Origin: Patellaria atrata CBS 101060
Taxonomy: Eukaryota
Length of the DNA stretch: 64,000 nucleotides
Direction of reading: 5' to 3'
NCBI GenBank assembly: GCA_010093705.1
Contig: MU006103.1
Span: 310,001-374,000 of the forward strand
Position numbers and translations under genes: made by a program. The notes under the pieces are model-generated. The model was not told the DNA's origin, searched no databases, and worked only from the letters and a program-made list of their open reading frames with translations. Positions 32,754 through 43,012 of the stretch are shown here, in pieces (positions within the stretch are counted from its first letter, which is position 1; each line of letters starts with the position of its first letter).

Positions 32754-34634
32754 ATGGCATCTCAACAGTCTCATAAACCTAGGAGACGAAAGAGAGTCGA
32801 GGATGGTGCTTCAACACATTCCAATCATGGCGCCATCATTAGTACTTCCAGGTCCAAGAATCCAGAGCCAGCTTTTCCATTAGTCGCTTTCCTTTGGCCA
32901 ACGAAAGGTACAGTCTCGCAATGGGTGGTACTACCGCTCATTCTTATGGCCGTAGGATTGTTCAGGTGGACCACAGGACTTTGGGGATACTCTGGTATGA
33001 GCCTCAAAGAATGTTGCGCGAATCGAGTTAATCCAATTGCAGGTTTCCAAACCCCTCCGATGCATGGAGATTTCGAGGCGCAGAGGCATTGGATGGAATT
33101 AACCATTCATTTACCATTGTCACAATGGTATTTTCATGAACTGGAATGGTGGGGCTTGGATTATCCCCCTCTGACTGCTTACCATAGCTGGATATTGGGC
33201 AAAATGTAAGACTCAAAAGATCTACTTGACGATGGAGCCAACTAACTGAAATCATGAAGAGGGAACTTTATCAATCCAAACTGGTTCGCTCTTCATACAT
33301 CTCGCGGGATTGATGATCCAACACTTAAGGTCTTCATGCGTGCTACGGTGTTCGTTTCCGAATATCTTACATATACTCCTGCTGTGATCATTTTCCTCCG
33401 CCGATATACTCGATTACAGAGTGTAAACACATGGGAAGCATCAATTGCCCTAGTAGCGATCTTGATGCAACCCGGAACCATCCTAATCGACCACGGGCAT
33501 TTCCAGTATAACACTGTCATGCTAGGATTTATGGTAGCTAGCATGTCCAGTGTGTTGGCCGGAAGACCATGGTGGGGTGCTGCTTTCTTCGTTGCTTCTC
33601 TTGGATTCAAGCAGATGGCATTGTTCTACGCCCCAGCAGTATTTTCATACCTCCTAGGCATATGCATATTTCCGCGGATAAACGTTGTGCGCTTCCTGGT
33701 CATTGGATTTACTACCGTTCTTTCCTTCGCCGTATTATTCGCACCCCTACTTTTGGGAGCGGTATATGATTCATACCGCGGCATACCTTACCAATCTTTA
33801 ATTCAACCACCGCTTTTGCAAGGACTGTCATTCCCTTTGAACGAAAAGTCATTGTATTATCCGATACTCTTACAGTTGACCCAGACTATTCATCGGATCT
33901 TCCCCTTCGCAAGGGGACTATTCGAGGACAAAGTGGCTAACTTCTGGTGTGCGCTTCACACATTTCATAAGCTTCACCACTATTCGGGCGCTCTTGTACA
34001 GCGTGCGGCTCTCCTTGCTACTTTAACCGCCATACTACCACCATGCGTCATCTTCTTCTTTAAACCTCATAAAGAGCTAATACCTCTAGCGTTTTCAGCG
34101 TGTTCGTGGGGCTTCTTCCTATTTTCATACCAAGTTCATGAGAAGAATGTTCTTCTTCCACTCTTGCCTATGACTCTACTTCTTGGGGGAGAAGGCGGTC
34201 TTCTACCATCTACTCGCGCATGGGTCGGTTTTGCGAACCTGCTTGGGGTCTGGACAATGTTCCCTCTCCTCAAACGAGATCAATTAACGGTACCTTACTA
34301 CGTTATTAGTCTTCTTTGGGCGTATCTCCTGGGACTACCACCCGTATCTTTATCGGCATATCATGAAGGCTTAGAAGGAGGTCTCAATCTCGCGACTAAA
34401 ATACTTCATGTGAACTTTTATCTCGTCATGGGGGTATGGCATGTGATGGAAGCTCTTGTTTCGCCCCCTACAAATAAACCAGACTTGTGGGTCGTGGGAA
34501 ATGTTCTTGTTGGTGCTGCTGGGTTTAGTATATGCTATCTATGGTGTCTCTGGACACTTTCAATTAAAAGTGGCGTTATAGCTGGGATCTGGACGCAGAG
34601 GGATGAACGGAAGGTTAAACTAAAAGAAAAGTAA
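32754..34634 (+). CDS. alg6: Dolichyl-P-Glc:Man9GlcNAc2-PP-dolichol alpha-1,3-glucosyltransferase
   Basis: PPMHGDFEAQRHWME, WGLDYPPLTAYHSW, LIDHGHFQYN, FPFARGLFEDKVANFWC, SYQVHEK. Introns 32995-33042 and 33206-33259. C-terminal KxKxx ER-retrieval motif. Confidence 0.96.
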
Positions 34635-35467
34635 CTTTGTCAGCAGACCATGGATACCCATTTCATTTCTCGATTTCTATCTTCGGTGTCATAATAAGGC
34701 AGTAGCATTTCCTTAAGTCTATACAAGTAGAGAGGGGTAGTTTTTTACATGTTGTATCTTATAGTGCATAATACTCGTACAAAACCCGACTTCATCAAAG
34801 TGCTGTTGCTCGAAACGCCTTATCCATGCAACCAATGGGGACATGTCTCAATATAAATAGTCCTGCTCGTCCGCTCCAAGGTCTATATGTTGAATCCGTA
34901 ACCAGCCATACAGCTCTTATACTGCGATACTAAGTCTTTGCATTCTAATTGCGCGTTATCGCTTGTGGAGAAGAGCATGCACTCGTCGCGTTTAGACTTT
35001 TCTTCTTTGCAGACACAGCAAGGCTACCGAATGTCAGCGGCCCATCTTGTGTCTGCAGTTTCTAGGGTAGGGGGAATTTGTACCTTTGGTCTTTCTGTGC
35101 TGGTGCCCGCGGACTTGAGGTCGGCGCCCAAGTTGGCAGCTGTTGCGGTTTCTAATAGATGGTCAGCTTCCCTGTCAATTCGACAAGCTGATGAATACTA
35201 ACTAGATGCCATTGCGCTCATTGTGAATGTGTATGATGTGGAAGAGGTTTGAGTCGAGGGCGAAAGTTGTAGATTAATAATTGCGGAAGCTTGAGGGAAG
35301 CCGAAGATGATGCAGGGACGGGCTTGGCACAGCGATTTCCATGCCAATAACGAAATTGCCCCTCCAAACATTTCCCCACAACCATTACCGAATAACTAGT
35401 TCTTTTACTGCACACCATTAGTGTTCTACGATCAACTCAAACATAGCTTCTTAAGAATAGAAGTGCA

Positions 35468-36740
35468 ATGGCAACTACAAAGGTCTTCTCTCTCGAGGGA
35501 AAGGGATTGAAGCTGGACACAGCAGGAGACATCGAGCCGCATATTGCAGCCTTGAAAGCTAATGACGATGTGGAGGAAATACACTTTCTAGGAAATACTC
35601 TCGGTATCGGGGCATGCGAAGCTCTCGCGGAAGTTCTTAAAACGAAAAAGAAACTTCGAGTATGTCCACCATCCGTTTTCACCTGTCTATCCTTACTAAC
35701 CTATCTAGCACGCCAACTTTGCCGATATCTTCACAGCCCGCCTCCTCTCCGAAATTCCTCTTGCTCTACAAGCCCTCGTCGACGCCCTCGTAACTTTACC
35801 GGATCTAAACACTGTCAATTTGTCTGACAACGCTTTCGGTCTCAACACATCAGCACCTCTCGTCTCCTTCCTCTCCCAGCATGTTCCGCTCCAACACCTT
35901 ATCCTCAACAACAACGGTCTAGGTCCCGAGGCCGGCACACTTGTTGCCGATGCTCTGGTCTCTCTTGCCGCGAAGAAGATTGCTGCTGGGCCCAATACAC
36001 CAAAGTTAGAGACTGTTATCTGCGGACGCAATAGGCTAGAGAACGGCTCAATGAAGGCGTGGGCAAGAGCTTATGCGGCACATAATGGTGTTAAGGAGAT
36101 CAAAATGGTGCAGAACGGTATCAGACAGGAGGGCATCACGCACCTTCTCCAGGAAGGCCTAAATCACGCGAAGGACATTCAAGTGCTGGATCTTCAGGAT
36201 AACACGTTCACCGCAACAGGTGCTCGTGCCCTCGCGGACGTCGTCCCAACATGGCCTAAGCTCAAGGAACTGGGTGTCGGAGATTGTCTGTTGGGCGCAC
36301 GGGGTGGAGTCATGCTGGGTAATGCCTTAGAAAAGGGAGAAAATCCAGAGCTTGAAGTTTTAAGACTTCAGTACAACGATATCGATATCAAGGGTGTGAA
36401 AGGAATTGCTGCTGGCCTATCTAAAGTACCAAAACTCCGCAGAGTAGAACTCAATGGGAACAAATTCAGCGAGGAGGACGATGCAGTGGACAAGATCAGG
36501 GATACCTTAGTCGAACGTCGAGACGATGCGGGAATCTCAGCGGAGGATGGGGAGGAGACTTGGGGACTCGATGAGCTGGATGAATTGGATGATGAGAGTG
36601 ATGATGAGGATAAAGAGGAGGAAGACGAGAAGGAGACAGTGCTGAAGAGGGCAGATGAAGCTGAGGATGAGAAGGTCGCACAGAAACAGGATAAGGGTGT
36701 CGATGAGTTGGCCAATCTTTTGGGGAAGACGTCGGTATAG
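35468..36740 (+). CDS. rna1: Ran GTPase-activating protein (LRR plus acidic tail)
   Basis: GNTLG..AC, ADIFTARL, LSDNAFG, CGRNRLENG, QNGIR, LDLQDNTFT, acidic C-terminus. Intron 35660-35708. Confidence 0.95.
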
Positions 36741-37347
36741 TGTTCTAATGATAAGTTGGATGGTAGGAAAGTTGTTGCATGGACTGTAACGATTGGAGTG
36801 AGGTTATTGCATCTTTTGGTTGCGTATTAGCGAGATTGAAGAGTATATAGAAATTTAAAATGATAGAAGAACAGCGGAAGAGCCAAGTTTTACCTCACGA
36901 CTAGCGGTCTGTGTAGAACCCTAATCGACACTCTCCTCTATTCCGATAGACGTACACCGTCCTTTGAACTAATTGACCGGTATATCAGGCCGAGGCCTAT
37001 AACGAGCATCCTATACTGTACGGTACAGGCACTGTACGGCCTTTGAACCACCTTTTCGAGCCTTTTACGAGATTGCCTATTAGTGTGGAGTGATGAATTC
37101 GACCGGTAGGGAGTGCCGTGAAGTTAACTGTACCAGAGTATTACCGATACACTCCCGGTTAGTTGAAAAATGGGAGGTAATTAGGGCGTGAACATAGACC
37201 GAGGCTTTATCTCAACTATGTCATCATTCCAGATCATCAAACCTTGCCTTAATATTACCATCAGGTCTAAAAAATGGTAAACAATCATTGTGAAATTCTA
37301 CAGATGTAAACTCCACTCGAGTGATCCTAAAACACCCCCAAGTGTGA

Positions 37348-37596
37348 CTAACAGACTCCTCCAGTAATCTTACAGATGGCTTTTGAGATTGCGTCCCAGA
37401 AGCCCCGTTTCACGAGTATTTCCCCGTTTGTGTCCAGCTCTTCAATATCGGCGGCATAGGTAGTATAAGTAACGGGCTCACTGTCGATATTGCTGGAGAC
37501 AGAAACGCTGTCGCCAGTTGAGGCAAATTGAAGACGGGGGCCAGCAAGGACGCCGGCGGCTGTTGAGAGAATTATGATGGTGTTGGTGAGACGCAT
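37348..37596 (-). CDS. Small secreted prepropeptide (82 aa): signal, acidic pro-region, KR, 18-aa peptide with two Cys
   Basis: MRLTNTIIILSTAAGVLA|GPR...DIEELDTNGEILVKR|GFWDAISKAICKITGGVC*. ATG in a strong context (CACAATG). Intronless. Confidence 0.8.
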   Translation of the reverse strand: MRLTNTIIILSTAAGVLAGPRLQFASTGDSVSVSSNIDSEPVTYTTYAADIEELDTNGEILVKRGFWDAISKAICKITGGVC

Positions 37597-38252
37597 TGTG
37601 GATGATTGTTAAGAAATATTGTGTGATATTTGATTTTCTGCTTTTTCTTTTAGAGAAGATGCGGCTCAGGGGGGGTGGGAGGGCGCTAAGAGAAATATAA
37701 AGGGCCATGTTGTGTGACAAAGAGTGAGTTCAATGTAATTTAGGATGAAAACAACAAAGAAGAGAGGTTAAAGGATAACCATAAAGAACCGATACTTGTC
37801 CTAGCATACAAAGAAGCATTGTCTCGGTGGCCACAAGCTCTTATGTAAGTCTATAGTGTCCCGTCTTATAGAGCACGTACACAACGAGTATGGATAAGAT
37901 GTATAACAACCGACAAGTGCGAAACCTGACTGTGAGAGGATCTATAATCAATGATTGTACATGAGCCTTGGTTAAAATACGACAGTAGTCTTAGTATAAA
38001 TCTTTCGATACCGATATGTAATAATGGATTCTTGTGTGCGGGTTAGCATGAAATTGTGCGGATGACTTTCATTTATGAGAGACGGATAGTTCGTAGATTG
38101 CGAGAGGACAGCAATCAAGTTTTGAATCATATCTATGCTAAACATTATCCAGTACGACTATACATGAATGTTAATTAGAATGTCGATAATTGACGTGGGA
38201 TTGAAGGCGGTTCAGGATTTTAAGGGGTTAGCTAATCAGAGCTACGCAGCAG

Positions 38253-38489
38253 CAGGAGTCGACAAAATTCGTGGGACAGACCATTGCACCACCAAAACTC
38301 ACTGATTAAACCACAAAATCCCATAGAATACTAGAATTAAAATAGTTAATATTATTCTCTTTTTACTGAATTATATCCTAGATAGATTTTATTAATTCAA
38401 TAATTAGTTTTCGTGGTGTTATTATGGTTTTTTATACCTTCACATAAGTTAGTATAGTAAAAGCGTCCCACGAATTTTGTTGACCCCTG
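38253..38489. mobile_element. MITE-like non-autonomous DNA transposon, 237 bp, with 25-bp terminal inverted repeats
   Basis: Left CAGGAGTCGACAAAATTCGTGGGAC (38253-38277) versus reverse complement of 38465-38489, CAGGGGTCAACAAAATTCGTGGGAC: 23/25 identical. AT-rich non-coding interior. No clean TSD. Confidence 0.7.
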
Positions 38490-38678
38490 GTGAAGCCGGT
38501 GAGCTACCGTGATAAAGCCAGTGCCAAGACTAAATTTTCTAGAGCGCATCCCCGTCATCCTACACGTTCTCTCCCTAGTTTTATCAACTATCAAAAGATA
38601 TTCAATTCACACAATCCATCATCATACCTTCCTCTCAACTCTTTGCATCACGTTGTTCTCTAGAATTATCTCTTCATC

Positions 38679-39790
38679 ATGTTCGTCATCATTCTGCTTT
38701 CACCATTGGAACTAGGCTAATGCGATATGCAGGTATCTGCTTCGGCGCGCCGCCTTCAAGGTTATCTCTTCGCAACCTCAGTCTTTCCTCCCAAAAACCC
38801 GTTCCATCACAACTGTCACTAAACAAACCTTCCATCAGAGACAGCAATGGGCTGTGTCGCCTTTGCAAAGGCGGTTCGCCTCAGAGGACGCCGCCAGGGA
38901 GGAGGCAAAACTGAGTGAAGACCAAGTTGGTGATGAGACGGTCCCTTCCGAAGAATCATCTAAGAATCACGCTACGGTCGACTCTTTGATCAATAGCGCT
39001 AGGCAGACTGCATCTGAAGCGGCGGATGCGATCTCAGCCACCTCTCAGGGTGTAGCGGAAAGTGCAAGAAATGCCGGTGCTGCTACTAGTTTTTCTAGAT
39101 CCCAATCGACAGCACCCAGCATTGTGCAACCGAGTGACTGTACCCTTTACGTCGGCAACCTGTTCTTCGAAGTTACTGCAGATACTCTGAAGCGAGAGTT
39201 TGGACAATTTGGACCGATCAAGTATACTAAGATCATCTACGATCCAAGAGGGCTAAGCAAGGGGTAGGCTTTACGTATCCTGTTGATTGACCTTAATACT
39301 GAGACTAACACTTGGTTGTAGGTTCGGATATGTTGAGTTCGAGAATAAGGAGGACGCTGCGAAGGCGCTTGAGCGTTTGAATCAGCAAATCTTTGAAGGT
39401 CGCCGCATGACAGTTCAATACCACAAGAGGTCTGAAAGGTCTGAAACGCGCGGGGTTCCAAAATATGAGAGAAAGCCAACTGAACCTTCGAAGACACTTT
39501 TCATTGGAAACATGTCGTTTGAAATGTCTGACAAGGACTTGAACGATTTGTTCAGAGAAATCCGTAACGTATTAGACGTAAGAGTTGCAATCGATAGACG
39601 AACTGGTCAACCAAGGGGTTTCGCACACGCAGACTTCATCGACGTTGCTAGCGCTGAGAGGGCTAAAGAACTGTTGAATGACAAAGAGATCTATGGCAGG
39701 AGATTGAGAGTTGACTTTGGAAAGAGAAGTGCCCGGGAACCTGGAACTGATGGTGCTCCTCAACAAGACACTGGAAGTACACCTCAGTAA
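38679..39790 (+). CDS. Two-RRM RNA-binding protein with a predicted mitochondrial presequence
   Basis: Start codon AT|G split by intron 38681-38732 gives MYLLRRAAFKVISS...LQRRFAS. RRM1 LYVGNL...KGFGYVEF (intron 39264-39321), RRM2 LFIGNM...RGFAHADF. Confidence 0.85.
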
Positions 39791-40327
39791 GAAGTCAAGC
39801 ATGCTCATCTGCATAGCTTCATAGTTAGATCGAGTCGACCCCAGACTTCTGCTCTTTGAATCTATGCGAGCAATCACTTGACTCCATCATATTTCTTCTC
39901 TGTGTTACTGGCCACTTTGTTCTTTGTTGATTTCTTGAAAAATCTTTTCTGCGGTTTCATATTGTGTACATAACGGTTGTAACAATAATAGTTAGATGGA
40001 TATACATACGGCGTTGTCTAATCGCCACTCATGCTTATTATTTGTAGAGTCTCCTGACTATCCACTGATGATGACCCTCCACAACTTCTTGACGTTTCAT
40101 TATTGTTCGGCTCGAAAATGCACTGATTGAAAGATCCAAATCATGTGGCGGAGACGCCTTCTGTTATCCCGAAAGAACGCTGTGCCTCGGGATTTTTAGC
40201 CCCACCACCAACCAAATAGAAGCTCTTGACTAATCCGCTATTTCACCCTCTCCTGCAACTTTACAGTAAACAACTTCTTACTTGACTCCACCTTCTGCCT
40301 TCCTTTACACTTCATATATTATCTGTT

Positions 40328-42314
40328 ATGAGCTTTCTAGGAGGAGCAGAATGCTCCACGGCTGGCAACCCACTCAGCCAATTCACCAAGCATGTTCAGG
40401 ATGACAAAACGTTACAGAGAGACCGGCTGGCCGGTCGCAGTCCTGGCGGTATGCAAGAGAGCGTTAGATCACAGAATATGAGTCCAGCTCAGGATCAGGT
40501 CATTTTTCTAGCACCCTAGTACCATGTCATAGTAGCTAATGAATTGGTGTTAGATGATGGACCAGTTCCTACAACAGTCCGGCCAGTTACCACAAGGACC
40601 AGCGTCACCATTCGCCATGGAACAGATGAGACGAGAATTAGAAAGAGCACAACATAGCGGGTCTCCGAACTGGGCTGCGGAGTTCGAACCTGGGGTTGAA
40701 GGTCCCGCGAGGATGGAAACCGCTTTCCGACAGATGCCCCAGAACGCCAAAGCTGGATTCACTCCCGAACAGTTTGCTATGTTCCAACGTAACCAACAAG
40801 AAGCGCGCAGTGGTGCTGCGAGCCCACAAACTATGAGTGGGTACCAACGTCCCATGAACTACAGTATGGGCATGGGTGGTATGGGTGTGGGATACGGAAT
40901 GGGTATGGGAATGATGCAGCGACCATATAGCGATATTAGTTTTCAGCAGCCCATGCAAGCAGAAGGCAAAGGCAAAGGACGTATGGTCGAACTCGACGAT
41001 AAAGACTGGGAGGCACAATTCAAGGAGCTCGAATCAACTGAAAAGGACGCCGAGAAGTTAGACGAGGAAGCGAATAAGGCGATGGAAGCAGAGCTCGAGG
41101 ATATAGACAGGTCAGTCCCTTCTGAGAGAGATCAATTCGGGAATTTTGAGGATATTTGGAGGAGCATTCAAGCTGAAACGGCCAATGCTAGACATCTCGT
41201 CGAAGAAGAACATATGCTGGATCCCATGCATATGGGCGATCTTGGGGATTGGGAAGGCTTCGATGGCATCAGAACGCACAGCGATTTTCAAGACCCCCAG
41301 ATAGGTGACTATTTATTCGAAGAACAGAACCTATTCAGTGACATCACAAATCCATTCGAGGAAGGAATGAAGATAATGCGGGAGGGCGGTAACCTCTCCT
41401 TAGCAGCTCTTGCCTTTGAGGCTGCGGTTCAAAAAGACCCGAATCATGTAGAAGCATGGACAAAACTTGGTGCTGCCCAGGCGCAAAATGAAAAGGAATC
41501 TCCGGCGATACGGGCTTTGGAACAATCACTCAAGATCGACCCCTCTAATCTCGAAGCACTTATGGGTCTTGCAGTATCGTATACGAACGAAGGCTACGAT
41601 AGCACCGCTTACCGAACCCTTGAGCGTTGGGTAGCTACCAAATACCCCCAACTAATTACAACACCTCTCTCCTCTCCAGAAGAGGTCGGTTTCACAGATC
41701 GACATGCTCTACACGAGAAAGTGACCAACCTCTTCATCGAAGCTGCGCAACTCTCACCCTCCGGCGAGCATATGGATCCAGACGTCCAAGTCGGGCTCGG
41801 TGTTCTCTTTTATGGAGCGGAACAGTATGATAAAGCCGTCGATTGTTTTGGTGCCGCGCTCGCATCGACGGAATCAGGTACCACAAACCAACAAGACCAA
41901 ATACATCTTCTTTGGAACAGATTAGGGGCCACTCTCGCAAATTCGGGTCGTTCAGAAGAAGCGATAGATGCATATGAACGCGCTCTTTCTATCCGTCCTA
42001 ACTTCGTCCGCGCCCGTTATAACCTTGGTGTTTCGTGTATCAACATCGGTTGCTTTGCTGAAGCGGCGCAACATTTACTCGGGGCTCTCGCCATGCACAA
42101 AGTTGTAGAGCGAGAAGGCCGAGAACGCGCAAAGGAGGTTGTTGGCGATGGTGTCAATGATGCAGAGCTGGATAGGATTGTTCAGCAGAATCAAAGCACT
42201 AATTTGTTCGATACTTTGCGAAGGGTCTTTAGCCAGATGGGTAGGAGGGATCTATCCGAATTAGTAGGTCCCGATATGGATATTAACAGATTTAGAGGGG
42301 AGTTTGAGTTTTAG
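40328..42314 (+). CDS. pex5: Peroxisomal PTS1 receptor
   Basis: N-terminal MSFLGGAECSTAGNPLSQF (conserved Cys), WxxxF motifs (WAAEF, WEAQF, WEGF-like), TPR domain (LWNRLGATLANSGRSEEAI; FVRARYNLGVSCINIG). Intron 40499-40553. Confidence 0.97.
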
Positions 42315-42556
42315 GAAGGAAATGTCAGAGAAGTTGTATAGCACATGATAGGCGTTGCATTGCTGGTGTTCGTCTATTGGAATATGTGATGAGTTCTGAT
42401 TTGGGCACTCTCAGGTTAGGGTGGAATGAGGAATATTTATGAACCCTAGACTTATCTACTTCCCTACAATGGGAGTGTAAACTGACGTAATCATTCATTT
42501 ACCTTGAAACACACATATTAAAGATATCCCCTAGTAACGAGGGAACTCGTTTTCCA

Positions 42557-43012
42557 TCAAACCAGAAATACGAGATACCATCCCCATAATACCTCATGTA
42601 CAAGTACAATGATCCAAAACTCAAACTGATACGAAACTTTGCTAGTCTTATGTTGAAAGATATACTGAGCGAGCAAAGCTCCCGGCCAGCCTCCTGCGAG
42701 TTCCGTCATGTGCAATGTACGTTCTGGCACCCTCCACTCTCCTCTCGGAGCAGCAACTCTGTCTTTGCGGTATACGACGATTGCTATAATACTCCAGAAG
42801 AGATACACCCATATGGGCCACTTTACACCGTAATGGTACCACAGGCGAACCATGCCGGCGAGCGGTAGACATAACGAGAGAAGCTTCGTCCCGAAGGTGC
42901 GTCGTTGGTGGGCTAGGACGACTTGACGGCGGTTTTGCTTGGGTGCTTCTACGGGTTTGCGTTTGGGACGGGAGGGTCTGGTTAGAGGCTTTGAGGTGTT
43001 CATTTTCTTCAT
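42557..43012 (-). CDS. DUF1294 family membrane protein
   Basis: D+.AA.RGEWRVPERTLH..ELAGGWPGALLAQYIFQHKTSK.SYQ matches the DUF1294 signature, with hydrophobic segments. Confidence 0.85.
   Translation of the reverse strand: MKKMNTSKPLTRPSRPKRKPVEAPKQNRRQVVLAHQRRTFGTKLLSLCLPLAGMVRLWYHYGVKWPIWVYLFWSIIAIVVYRKDRVAAPRGEWRVPERTLHMTELAGGWPGALLAQYIFQHKTSKVSYQFEFWIIVLVHEVLWGWYLVFLV

Follow-up and report, generated by a model that had tools for sequence, protein, structure and literature searches.

Here we describe a small, probable gene on the minus strand of the analysed window, a stretch of 64,000 nucleotides from Patellaria atrata CBS 101060 (contig MU006103.1). Its 82-aa open frame, confirmed by translating 37596-37348 (-), is as described by an earlier reading made from the letters of the DNA (the sequence-only reading). 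The anatomy of the encoded protein and the chance controls, together with its codon use and its start context, provide good support for a prepropeptide that is secreted and processed by Kex2 to release a helix-loop peptide. In our best reading, to which we assign a probability of roughly 0.5, the released product is secreted, carries a weak positive charge (+1) and acts on membranes in defence.

The features of the precursor and of its surroundings are collected in Table 1. The first 18 residues are signal-like (mean KD 1.39, Asp and Glu absent) and pass a crude rule for signal peptides, the first cut allowed by this rule lying after residue 15. Since the earlier cut is thus also permitted, placing the cut after residue 18 is a judgement, which was guided by the common signal-cleavage pattern of a cut between A and xP. 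The 18-aa signal ending in VLA that had been proposed therefore holds as a signal-like N-terminus, its exact end being a matter of judgement. Likewise, the proposed pro-region of 46 residues with eight Asp/Glu is recovered with its acidic count, its length being made up of 44 residues plus the KR pair (pI 4.1 for the 46 residues including KR). The KR within LVKR is the sole KR of the whole precursor and fits the extended Kex2 motif (P1 Arg, P2 Lys, P4 Leu) as defined in passages of PMC8528282. The genome holds one kexin-type P-domain gene (contig C20), in agreement with processing by Kex2; one 18-mer follows the KR, as had been proposed. AlphaFold modelled the whole precursor at low confidence (pLDDT 50.2) with a helix at residues 64-78. 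The frame carries the hallmarks of the Kex2-processed pro-domain secreted proteins (K2PP), namely a signal peptide, an unstructured pro-domain and a KR/RR or LxxR motif, as judged from the sequence, the crude signal rule and the low-confidence model.

Table 1. Features of the precursor gene and its surroundings (positions in the window)
Feature	Position	Strand	Remarks
Putative signal peptide, residues 1-18	37543..37596	-	Arg2, uncharged hydrophobic core, V-L-A then G-P
Acidic pro-region, Ser/Thr-rich, 44 aa, 8 Asp/Glu, Cys-free	37411..37542	-	Low-confidence AlphaFold region, pLDDT 47-51
LVKR, Kex2-type site (P1 Arg, P2 Lys, P4 Leu)	37405..37416	-	Motif match
Predicted mature 18-mer GFWDAISKAICKITGGVC	37351..37404	-	Amphipathic helix at about residues 1-13 and putative Cys11-Cys18 8-residue terminal loop
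Stop codon TAG	37348..37350	-	Immediately 3' of the Cys18 codon
Donor-like GTAAGA	37368..37373	-	Within the Cys11 codon; weak acceptors
Putative core promoter and 5' leader	37597..37700	-	TATAT at 37699; A-rich, G-poor leader; from sequence alone
Neighbouring LRR protein gene, acidic tail	35468..36740	+	LRR_6 Pfam match; tail to tail with the peptide gene
Neighbouring RRM protein gene	38690..39790 (start approximate)	+	RRM_1 Pfam match; divergent from the peptide gene

When the last 30 residues were modelled by AlphaFold with no alignment, the helix ended at mature residue 13 (mean pLDDT 83.7); Foldseek returned 0 matches with this 30-aa model. On a 100-degree wheel, F2, W3, I6, A9, I10, I13 and V17 fall on the hydrophobic half of the 18-mer and G1, D4, K8, C11, K12 and G15 on the opposite face, which bears out the two faces assigned previously (F2/W3/I6/I10/I13 versus D4/K8/K12). 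The hydrophobic moment of mature residues 1-13 (muH 0.68) is maximal at 100 degrees and was reached by 0.9% of 20,000 shuffles (p 0.009), by 0.16% of 62,246 windows taken from long frames in a 600-kb genome sample and by 0/219 post-KR windows in a 600-kb genome sample. Mean hydrophobicity of the 18-mer is 0.66, and its net charge was computed as about +1 at pH 6, matching the earlier estimate, with +0.8 at pH 7 and +1.8 at pH 4. The two Cys residues are placed as needed for the eight-residue loop Cys11-Cys18 that had been proposed; the disulfide itself we infer, and neither AlphaFold output reports one. For the oxidised 18-mer, a monoisotopic mass of 1865.92 ([M+2H]2+ 933.97) was computed.

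Neighbouring genes and introns of the locus are of fungal type. The LRR neighbour, which we take to be RanGAP/Rna1, and the RRM gene are accompanied by genes for Alg6, a TPR protein and a second RRM protein close by; the TPR gene is in tail-to-tail orientation with a gene for a DUF1294 family protein (42557-43012, minus strand). In two public runs from one sample, positions 33000-43000 are contained in single contigs (32 and 14 kb) with zero differences, so the stretch is neither an assembly error nor a foreign insert; both runs are probably of DNA and are possibly the assembly's own source, so that their support is not independent. A look for RNA runs carrying the stretch found none listed. 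The last 60 nt upstream of the ATG comprise 30 A and 3 G. An out-of-frame 76-aa ORF (37708-37478, minus strand) opens with an ATG in good context 112 nt upstream and overlaps the first 40 precursor codons; it has a poor codon score (-0.10) and no Pfam match, and should it be transcribed along with the precursor, it would serve as an overlapping, repressive uORF. Further upstream, about 650 nt from the peptide ATG, an AT-rich core of 187 nt is flanked by 28-nt inverted repeats (89% complementary). This element (38250-38492), which looks like a MITE relic from its repeat structure, was found as a sole copy in a genome search, and GAGCTAC occurs on both of its flanks, not flush with the repeat arms. 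A 13-nt inverted repeat pair (36831-36843 and 37438-37450), with one arm in the pro-region and the other near the neighbour's 3' end, is probably due to chance.

The precursor layout was evaluated by scoring ATG frames of 50-130 aa for a signal, KR, an acidic spacer, an amphipathic start and a terminal two-Cys ring. With strict cut-offs, the layout occurred 0 times among 450,982 frames in 166 Mb of order-4 Markov DNA; 689 of these frames had signal plus KR, among which 8 were acidic, 31 amphipathic and 3 ringed, and none combined an acidic spacer with an amphipathic start or a ring. The same cut-offs selected 0/1,582 frames in a sample of the real genome (600 kb in 60 stretches, about 2% of the genome). 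As the strict cut-offs had been set knowing the query, the test was repeated with loose ones, these also having been chosen with the query known. In this case, 9/331,817 frames passed in 94 Mb of a non-coding model, which corresponds to about 2.75 per genome by chance, and 1/2,347 frames passed in the real 600-kb sample. The layout evidence is therefore strong, yet threshold-dependent.

Two measures that are separate from the layout tests, codon score and start context, each gave p about 0.04. Compared with 428 null ORFs, which are short frames lying outside long ORFs, the ORF has a codon score within the top 4%; relative to 575 coding pieces, its score sits at the 65th percentile. Its start context, CACAATG, is of a CA type that 3.7% of the 428 null ORFs share. 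However, the codon test is weak, because the mature segment by itself is neutral (-0.007) and one antisense frame of the same DNA, despite 3 stops, scores as high as the ORF (0.125); the latter is explained by antisense shadows in the training set. From its sequence features, the locus is probably a real, unspliced gene for a secreted precursor.

The peptide gene is an orphan in the collections searched. Pfam yielded 0 families for the precursor and three sub-pieces, Rfam yielded 0 matches, a word-index protein search produced no homologue at near, longer or shorter lengths, and the ESM Atlas was uninformative, with no usable match (recognition 2180). Sequence matches in the PDB were at chance level, and frog peptides were absent among them. 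Exhaustive phmmer returned 6 matches, which were all discarded as long proteins built of repeats (Ig, ankyrin-like, helical repeats) that reach their scores by adding up many weak stretches, as judged by Pfam scans (6/6) and sequence inspection (4/6). A metagenome match (L037) lies opposite a long bacterial-type ORF and a viral match (L108) within a long phage-like frame, both being spurious, and 36/36 prokaryotic pattern matches lacked the precursor layout. This blank says little on other fungi, since the collections are mainly prokaryotic and the neighbouring proteins are absent by exact look-up (0/3 proteins present, including the two neighbours as single-exon pieces). The paralogues that the sequence-only reading had thought worth seeking did not appear: protein, DNA and pattern searches of the genome returned the locus alone, which was also the single match with the layout among 29 to the spacing pattern and among 4 to KRG-x-WD.

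Likeness to frog peptides had been noted before, the gene having been compared with ranid precursors of Rana-box peptides. In this comparison, precursor layout (with the signal assigned by the crude rule only), amphipathic helix (computed and predicted) and putative terminal ring stand, whereas the ring comprises eight residues and not the canonical 6-7 given for the Rana box in passages of PMC10812557. The ranatuerin-2 ending CKITGC given earlier has to be corrected, as the frog rings printed in the source passages end CKITGGC (PMC10812557, PMC9774241). According to passages of PMC10812557, ranatuerin-2-AW (charge +3, MIC 32 uM) begins GFMD, ends CKITGGC and is made from a precursor with a 22-aa signal, a 17-aa acidic spacer and KR; three further frog peptides ending CKITGGC appear in passages of PMC9774241. 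The fungal peptide begins GFWD and ends CKITGGVC. Judged by these sequences, the frog likeness is real and closer than previously stated: shared with ranid helix-loop AMPs are the order of signal, acidic spacer, KR and single C-terminal peptide, the GFxD start, the amphipathic helix and CKITGG opening the terminal loop. However, the fungal peptide has 18 residues versus 29-30, a ring of 8 versus 6-7 and a charge of +1 versus +3 or +4; its precursor has a fungal-type signal and a spacer of 44 aa versus 17 in the ranid peptide; and its gene lies in a continuous fungal contig and has no Pfam or sequence match to ranid AMPs. The frog profile PF08023 yielded 0 candidates in the genome. On account of the 8-residue ring, the fungal signal peptide and the missing profile match, the product is not a member of the ranid Rana-box AMPs (ranatuerin-2, brevinin, nigrocin). 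Frog contamination or transfer was rejected in view of the uniform single contigs across the flanking fungal genes and the lack of a match to the frog signal profile, and we read the likeness as convergence. For the five residues following Cys11, the probability at fixed positions, given the residue frequencies of the genome, is 6e-7. This value is suggestive only, because it has to be scaled up for the number of frog ring motifs and for the post-hoc choice. A further relative in design is aurein 1.2, a 13-aa frog AMP with +1 charge and an MIC of 16 uM (passages of PMC6695355 and PMC10011193). It shares the short amphipathic helix, G1, D4, I6 and K8 at equal positions and the +1 charge, but is amidated and Cys-free. 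Thus, a charge of +1 does not exclude activity.

Peptides from other sources share parts of this design. Thanatin, an insect AMP whose C-terminus forms a disulfide loop of 8 residues (Cys11-Cys18) that includes Thr-Gly (passages of PMC4410394 and PMC7596191), provides a precedent for a Rana-box-like terminal ring of eight residues outside frogs, but is a +6 beta-hairpin with a dissimilar N-terminus. Fungal defensin precursors consist of a signal, an acidic propeptide, a basic convertase site and one mature peptide (passages of PMC4165938), and because they share this arrangement the precursor layout is not specifically frog-like. Their products are, however, multi-disulfide proteins of about 40 aa with a CS-alpha-beta fold, whereas here two Cys are found in 18 residues and Pfam gave no match. 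Fungal defensins have six Cys. Candidalysins, the products of Ece1, are amphipathic helical lytic fungal peptides and likewise Kex2-released (passages of PMC8787473 and PMC9769878), but are 31 aa long and derive from a multi-peptide precursor in Candida, and sequence similarity was not detected. A terminal disulfide is not known from candidalysins, and the peptide carries a putative one (Table 1). A dikaritin was excluded: passages of PMC7329392 list an adjacent DUF3328/UstYa gene and a Tyr in the core as features of these RiPPs, whereas none of the 9 UstYa matches in the genome lies on the contig of the locus (C15) and the 18-mer has no Tyr. The nine UstYa/DUF3328 matches are located on C8 (511379-515360, with two genes close together), C2, C6, C13 and C32; by sequence, these are candidate dikaritin loci that are unrelated to the peptide.

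In our proposed mode of action, the prepropeptide made from the single-exon gene would enter the ER by its signal peptide, where Cys11 and Cys18 could oxidise, while the acidic spacer, by analogy, may neutralise the peptide and keep it inactive in transit. Kex2 in the Golgi would cleave after LVKR, where its motif is present, and the 18-residue peptide would be secreted. At a membrane, residues 1-13 are expected to form an amphipathic helix at the interface with Phe, Trp and Ile buried, in keeping with the computed moment and the predicted fold, and the small disulfide loop would cap this helix. At sufficient surface density the peptide might make the membranes of competitors, microbial or grazing, permeable by disturbing their bilayer. 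A charge of +1 to +2 together with high hydrophobicity leads us to expect modest potency with a bias to Gram-positive or fungal membranes, and acid pH may help activity. For the convergent membrane-active peptide postulated by the sequence-only reading, the anatomy of a secreted precursor and the frog likeness hold up, whereas membrane or antimicrobial activity is presumed, the charge is only +1 and homologues were not found. Several points stand against a defence role. The charge is lower than the +3 of ranatuerin-2-AW, no homologue or paralogue was found by which conservation could be gauged, and the gene is present in single copy, whereas AMP genes often occur as diversified families. In addition, the Cys11 codon contains a donor-like site, the precursor ATG is preceded by an out-of-frame one in good context, chance alone is expected to produce the relaxed layout a few times per genome, and the evidence from the codon test is weak. 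Moreover, passages of PMC9769878 describe synthetic KEP-derived peptides of Coprinopsis as being without antibacterial activity.

The alternative that the locus is a non-functional frame, i.e. a chance or decayed intergenic ORF whose AMP-like look was picked post hoc, is improbable. It would agree with the orphan status in every search and with the chance rate under relaxed criteria, but is at odds with the strict layout being absent from 166 Mb of simulated DNA, with the even number of Cys residues, all in the mature part, and with codon score and start context, which lie outside the layout tests. Moreover, the five relaxed matches in real DNA that combine acidic and amphipathic parts lack, in our judgement, a clean signal, a CACA-type start and a Gly-aromatic mature start. 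Very improbable is a real gene that is spliced at 37373, giving a 13-residue one-Cys helix (possibly a disulfide-linked dimer) or another C-terminus. The GTAAGA site could be joined to AAG acceptors with a CTGAT-type branch 126 or 131 nt on, or to a CAG with CTAAC 246 nt on. However, AAG acceptors are a minor class, in contrast to the canonical signals in the intron of the neighbouring RanGAP gene, and the unspliced frame stops exactly after the second Cys.

If the peptide is made as predicted, it could have another function. The signalling or effector role that had been named as an alternative is retained as a rival, albeit a rather unlikely one: a secreted peptide with a signalling function, be it pheromone-like, developmental or effector-like, would act via a receptor, with the helix docking to the membrane and the loop as recognition element. 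The ring matches the C-x3-G-x2-C motif of Cys-type alpha-pheromones in size and Gly position (passages of PMC6339444), and signal peptide and Kex2 site are likewise shared with these pheromones and other KEPs (passages of PMC6339444 and PMC7329392). Low charge and single copy fit such a role, as does a report, in passages of PMC8528282, that Kex2 pro-domains occur in about 30% of 120 effectors from plant pathogens. Furthermore, three patterns, two of them motif-based, detected no repeat-type precursor of a Cys alpha-pheromone elsewhere in the whole genome, so that the pheromone role is not shown to be taken and a signalling role may still be filled by this gene; these patterns are narrow, however, and a pheromone gene that is divergent could escape them, or be interrupted or missing. 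Unlike the alpha-pheromones described in passages of PMC6339444, the precursor has one KR, one core and no repeat inside the ORF, and its KR is followed by GF rather than by XA/XP Ste13 dipeptides. There is also no aromatic residue ahead of the first Cys and no GQ, and the long amphipathic N-terminal part, an extension of 10 residues, would be unusual. With a still lower probability, the product is a surface-active structural peptide resembling the Rep1 repellents of Ustilago, which would coat aerial hyphae or spores or lower surface tension. Rep1 peptides are amphipathic products of Kex2 cleavage that assemble into surface fibrils (passages of PMC8528282, PMC6339444 and PMC9769878), and the 18-mer is hydrophobic and nearly neutral, but Rep1 is a multi-repeat precursor as compared to one short peptide here, and the source passages mention no terminal disulfide for Rep1.

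A fungal peptide of the helix-loop or Rana-box-like type did not turn up in the full-text literature covered, with subscription journals outside this scope; related cores might be listed in the KEP catalogues of PMC6339444 and PMC7329392, even though entry there requires repeats. Fungal ribosomal antimicrobials in the literature searched are mostly Cys-rich folded proteins, the short helical lytic ones being the candidalysins. We tentatively propose, while considering it somewhat doubtful, that a filamentous fungus independently evolved a frog-type helix-loop AMP, in which the precursor layout, the GFxD start and the CKITGG loop have converged. If true, the gene would be the first of a class of single-core fungal AMP genes of <100 aa that would escape both repeat-based KEP surveys and ordinary gene callers, and a signal followed by an acidic spacer, LxKR and a Gly-aromatic amphipathic core would provide a search template for genes without repeats. 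It would also represent, beside thanatin, a cross-kingdom convergence on the Rana-box design, and the predicted peptide, if real, would represent a chemical weapon of a kind new to fungi.
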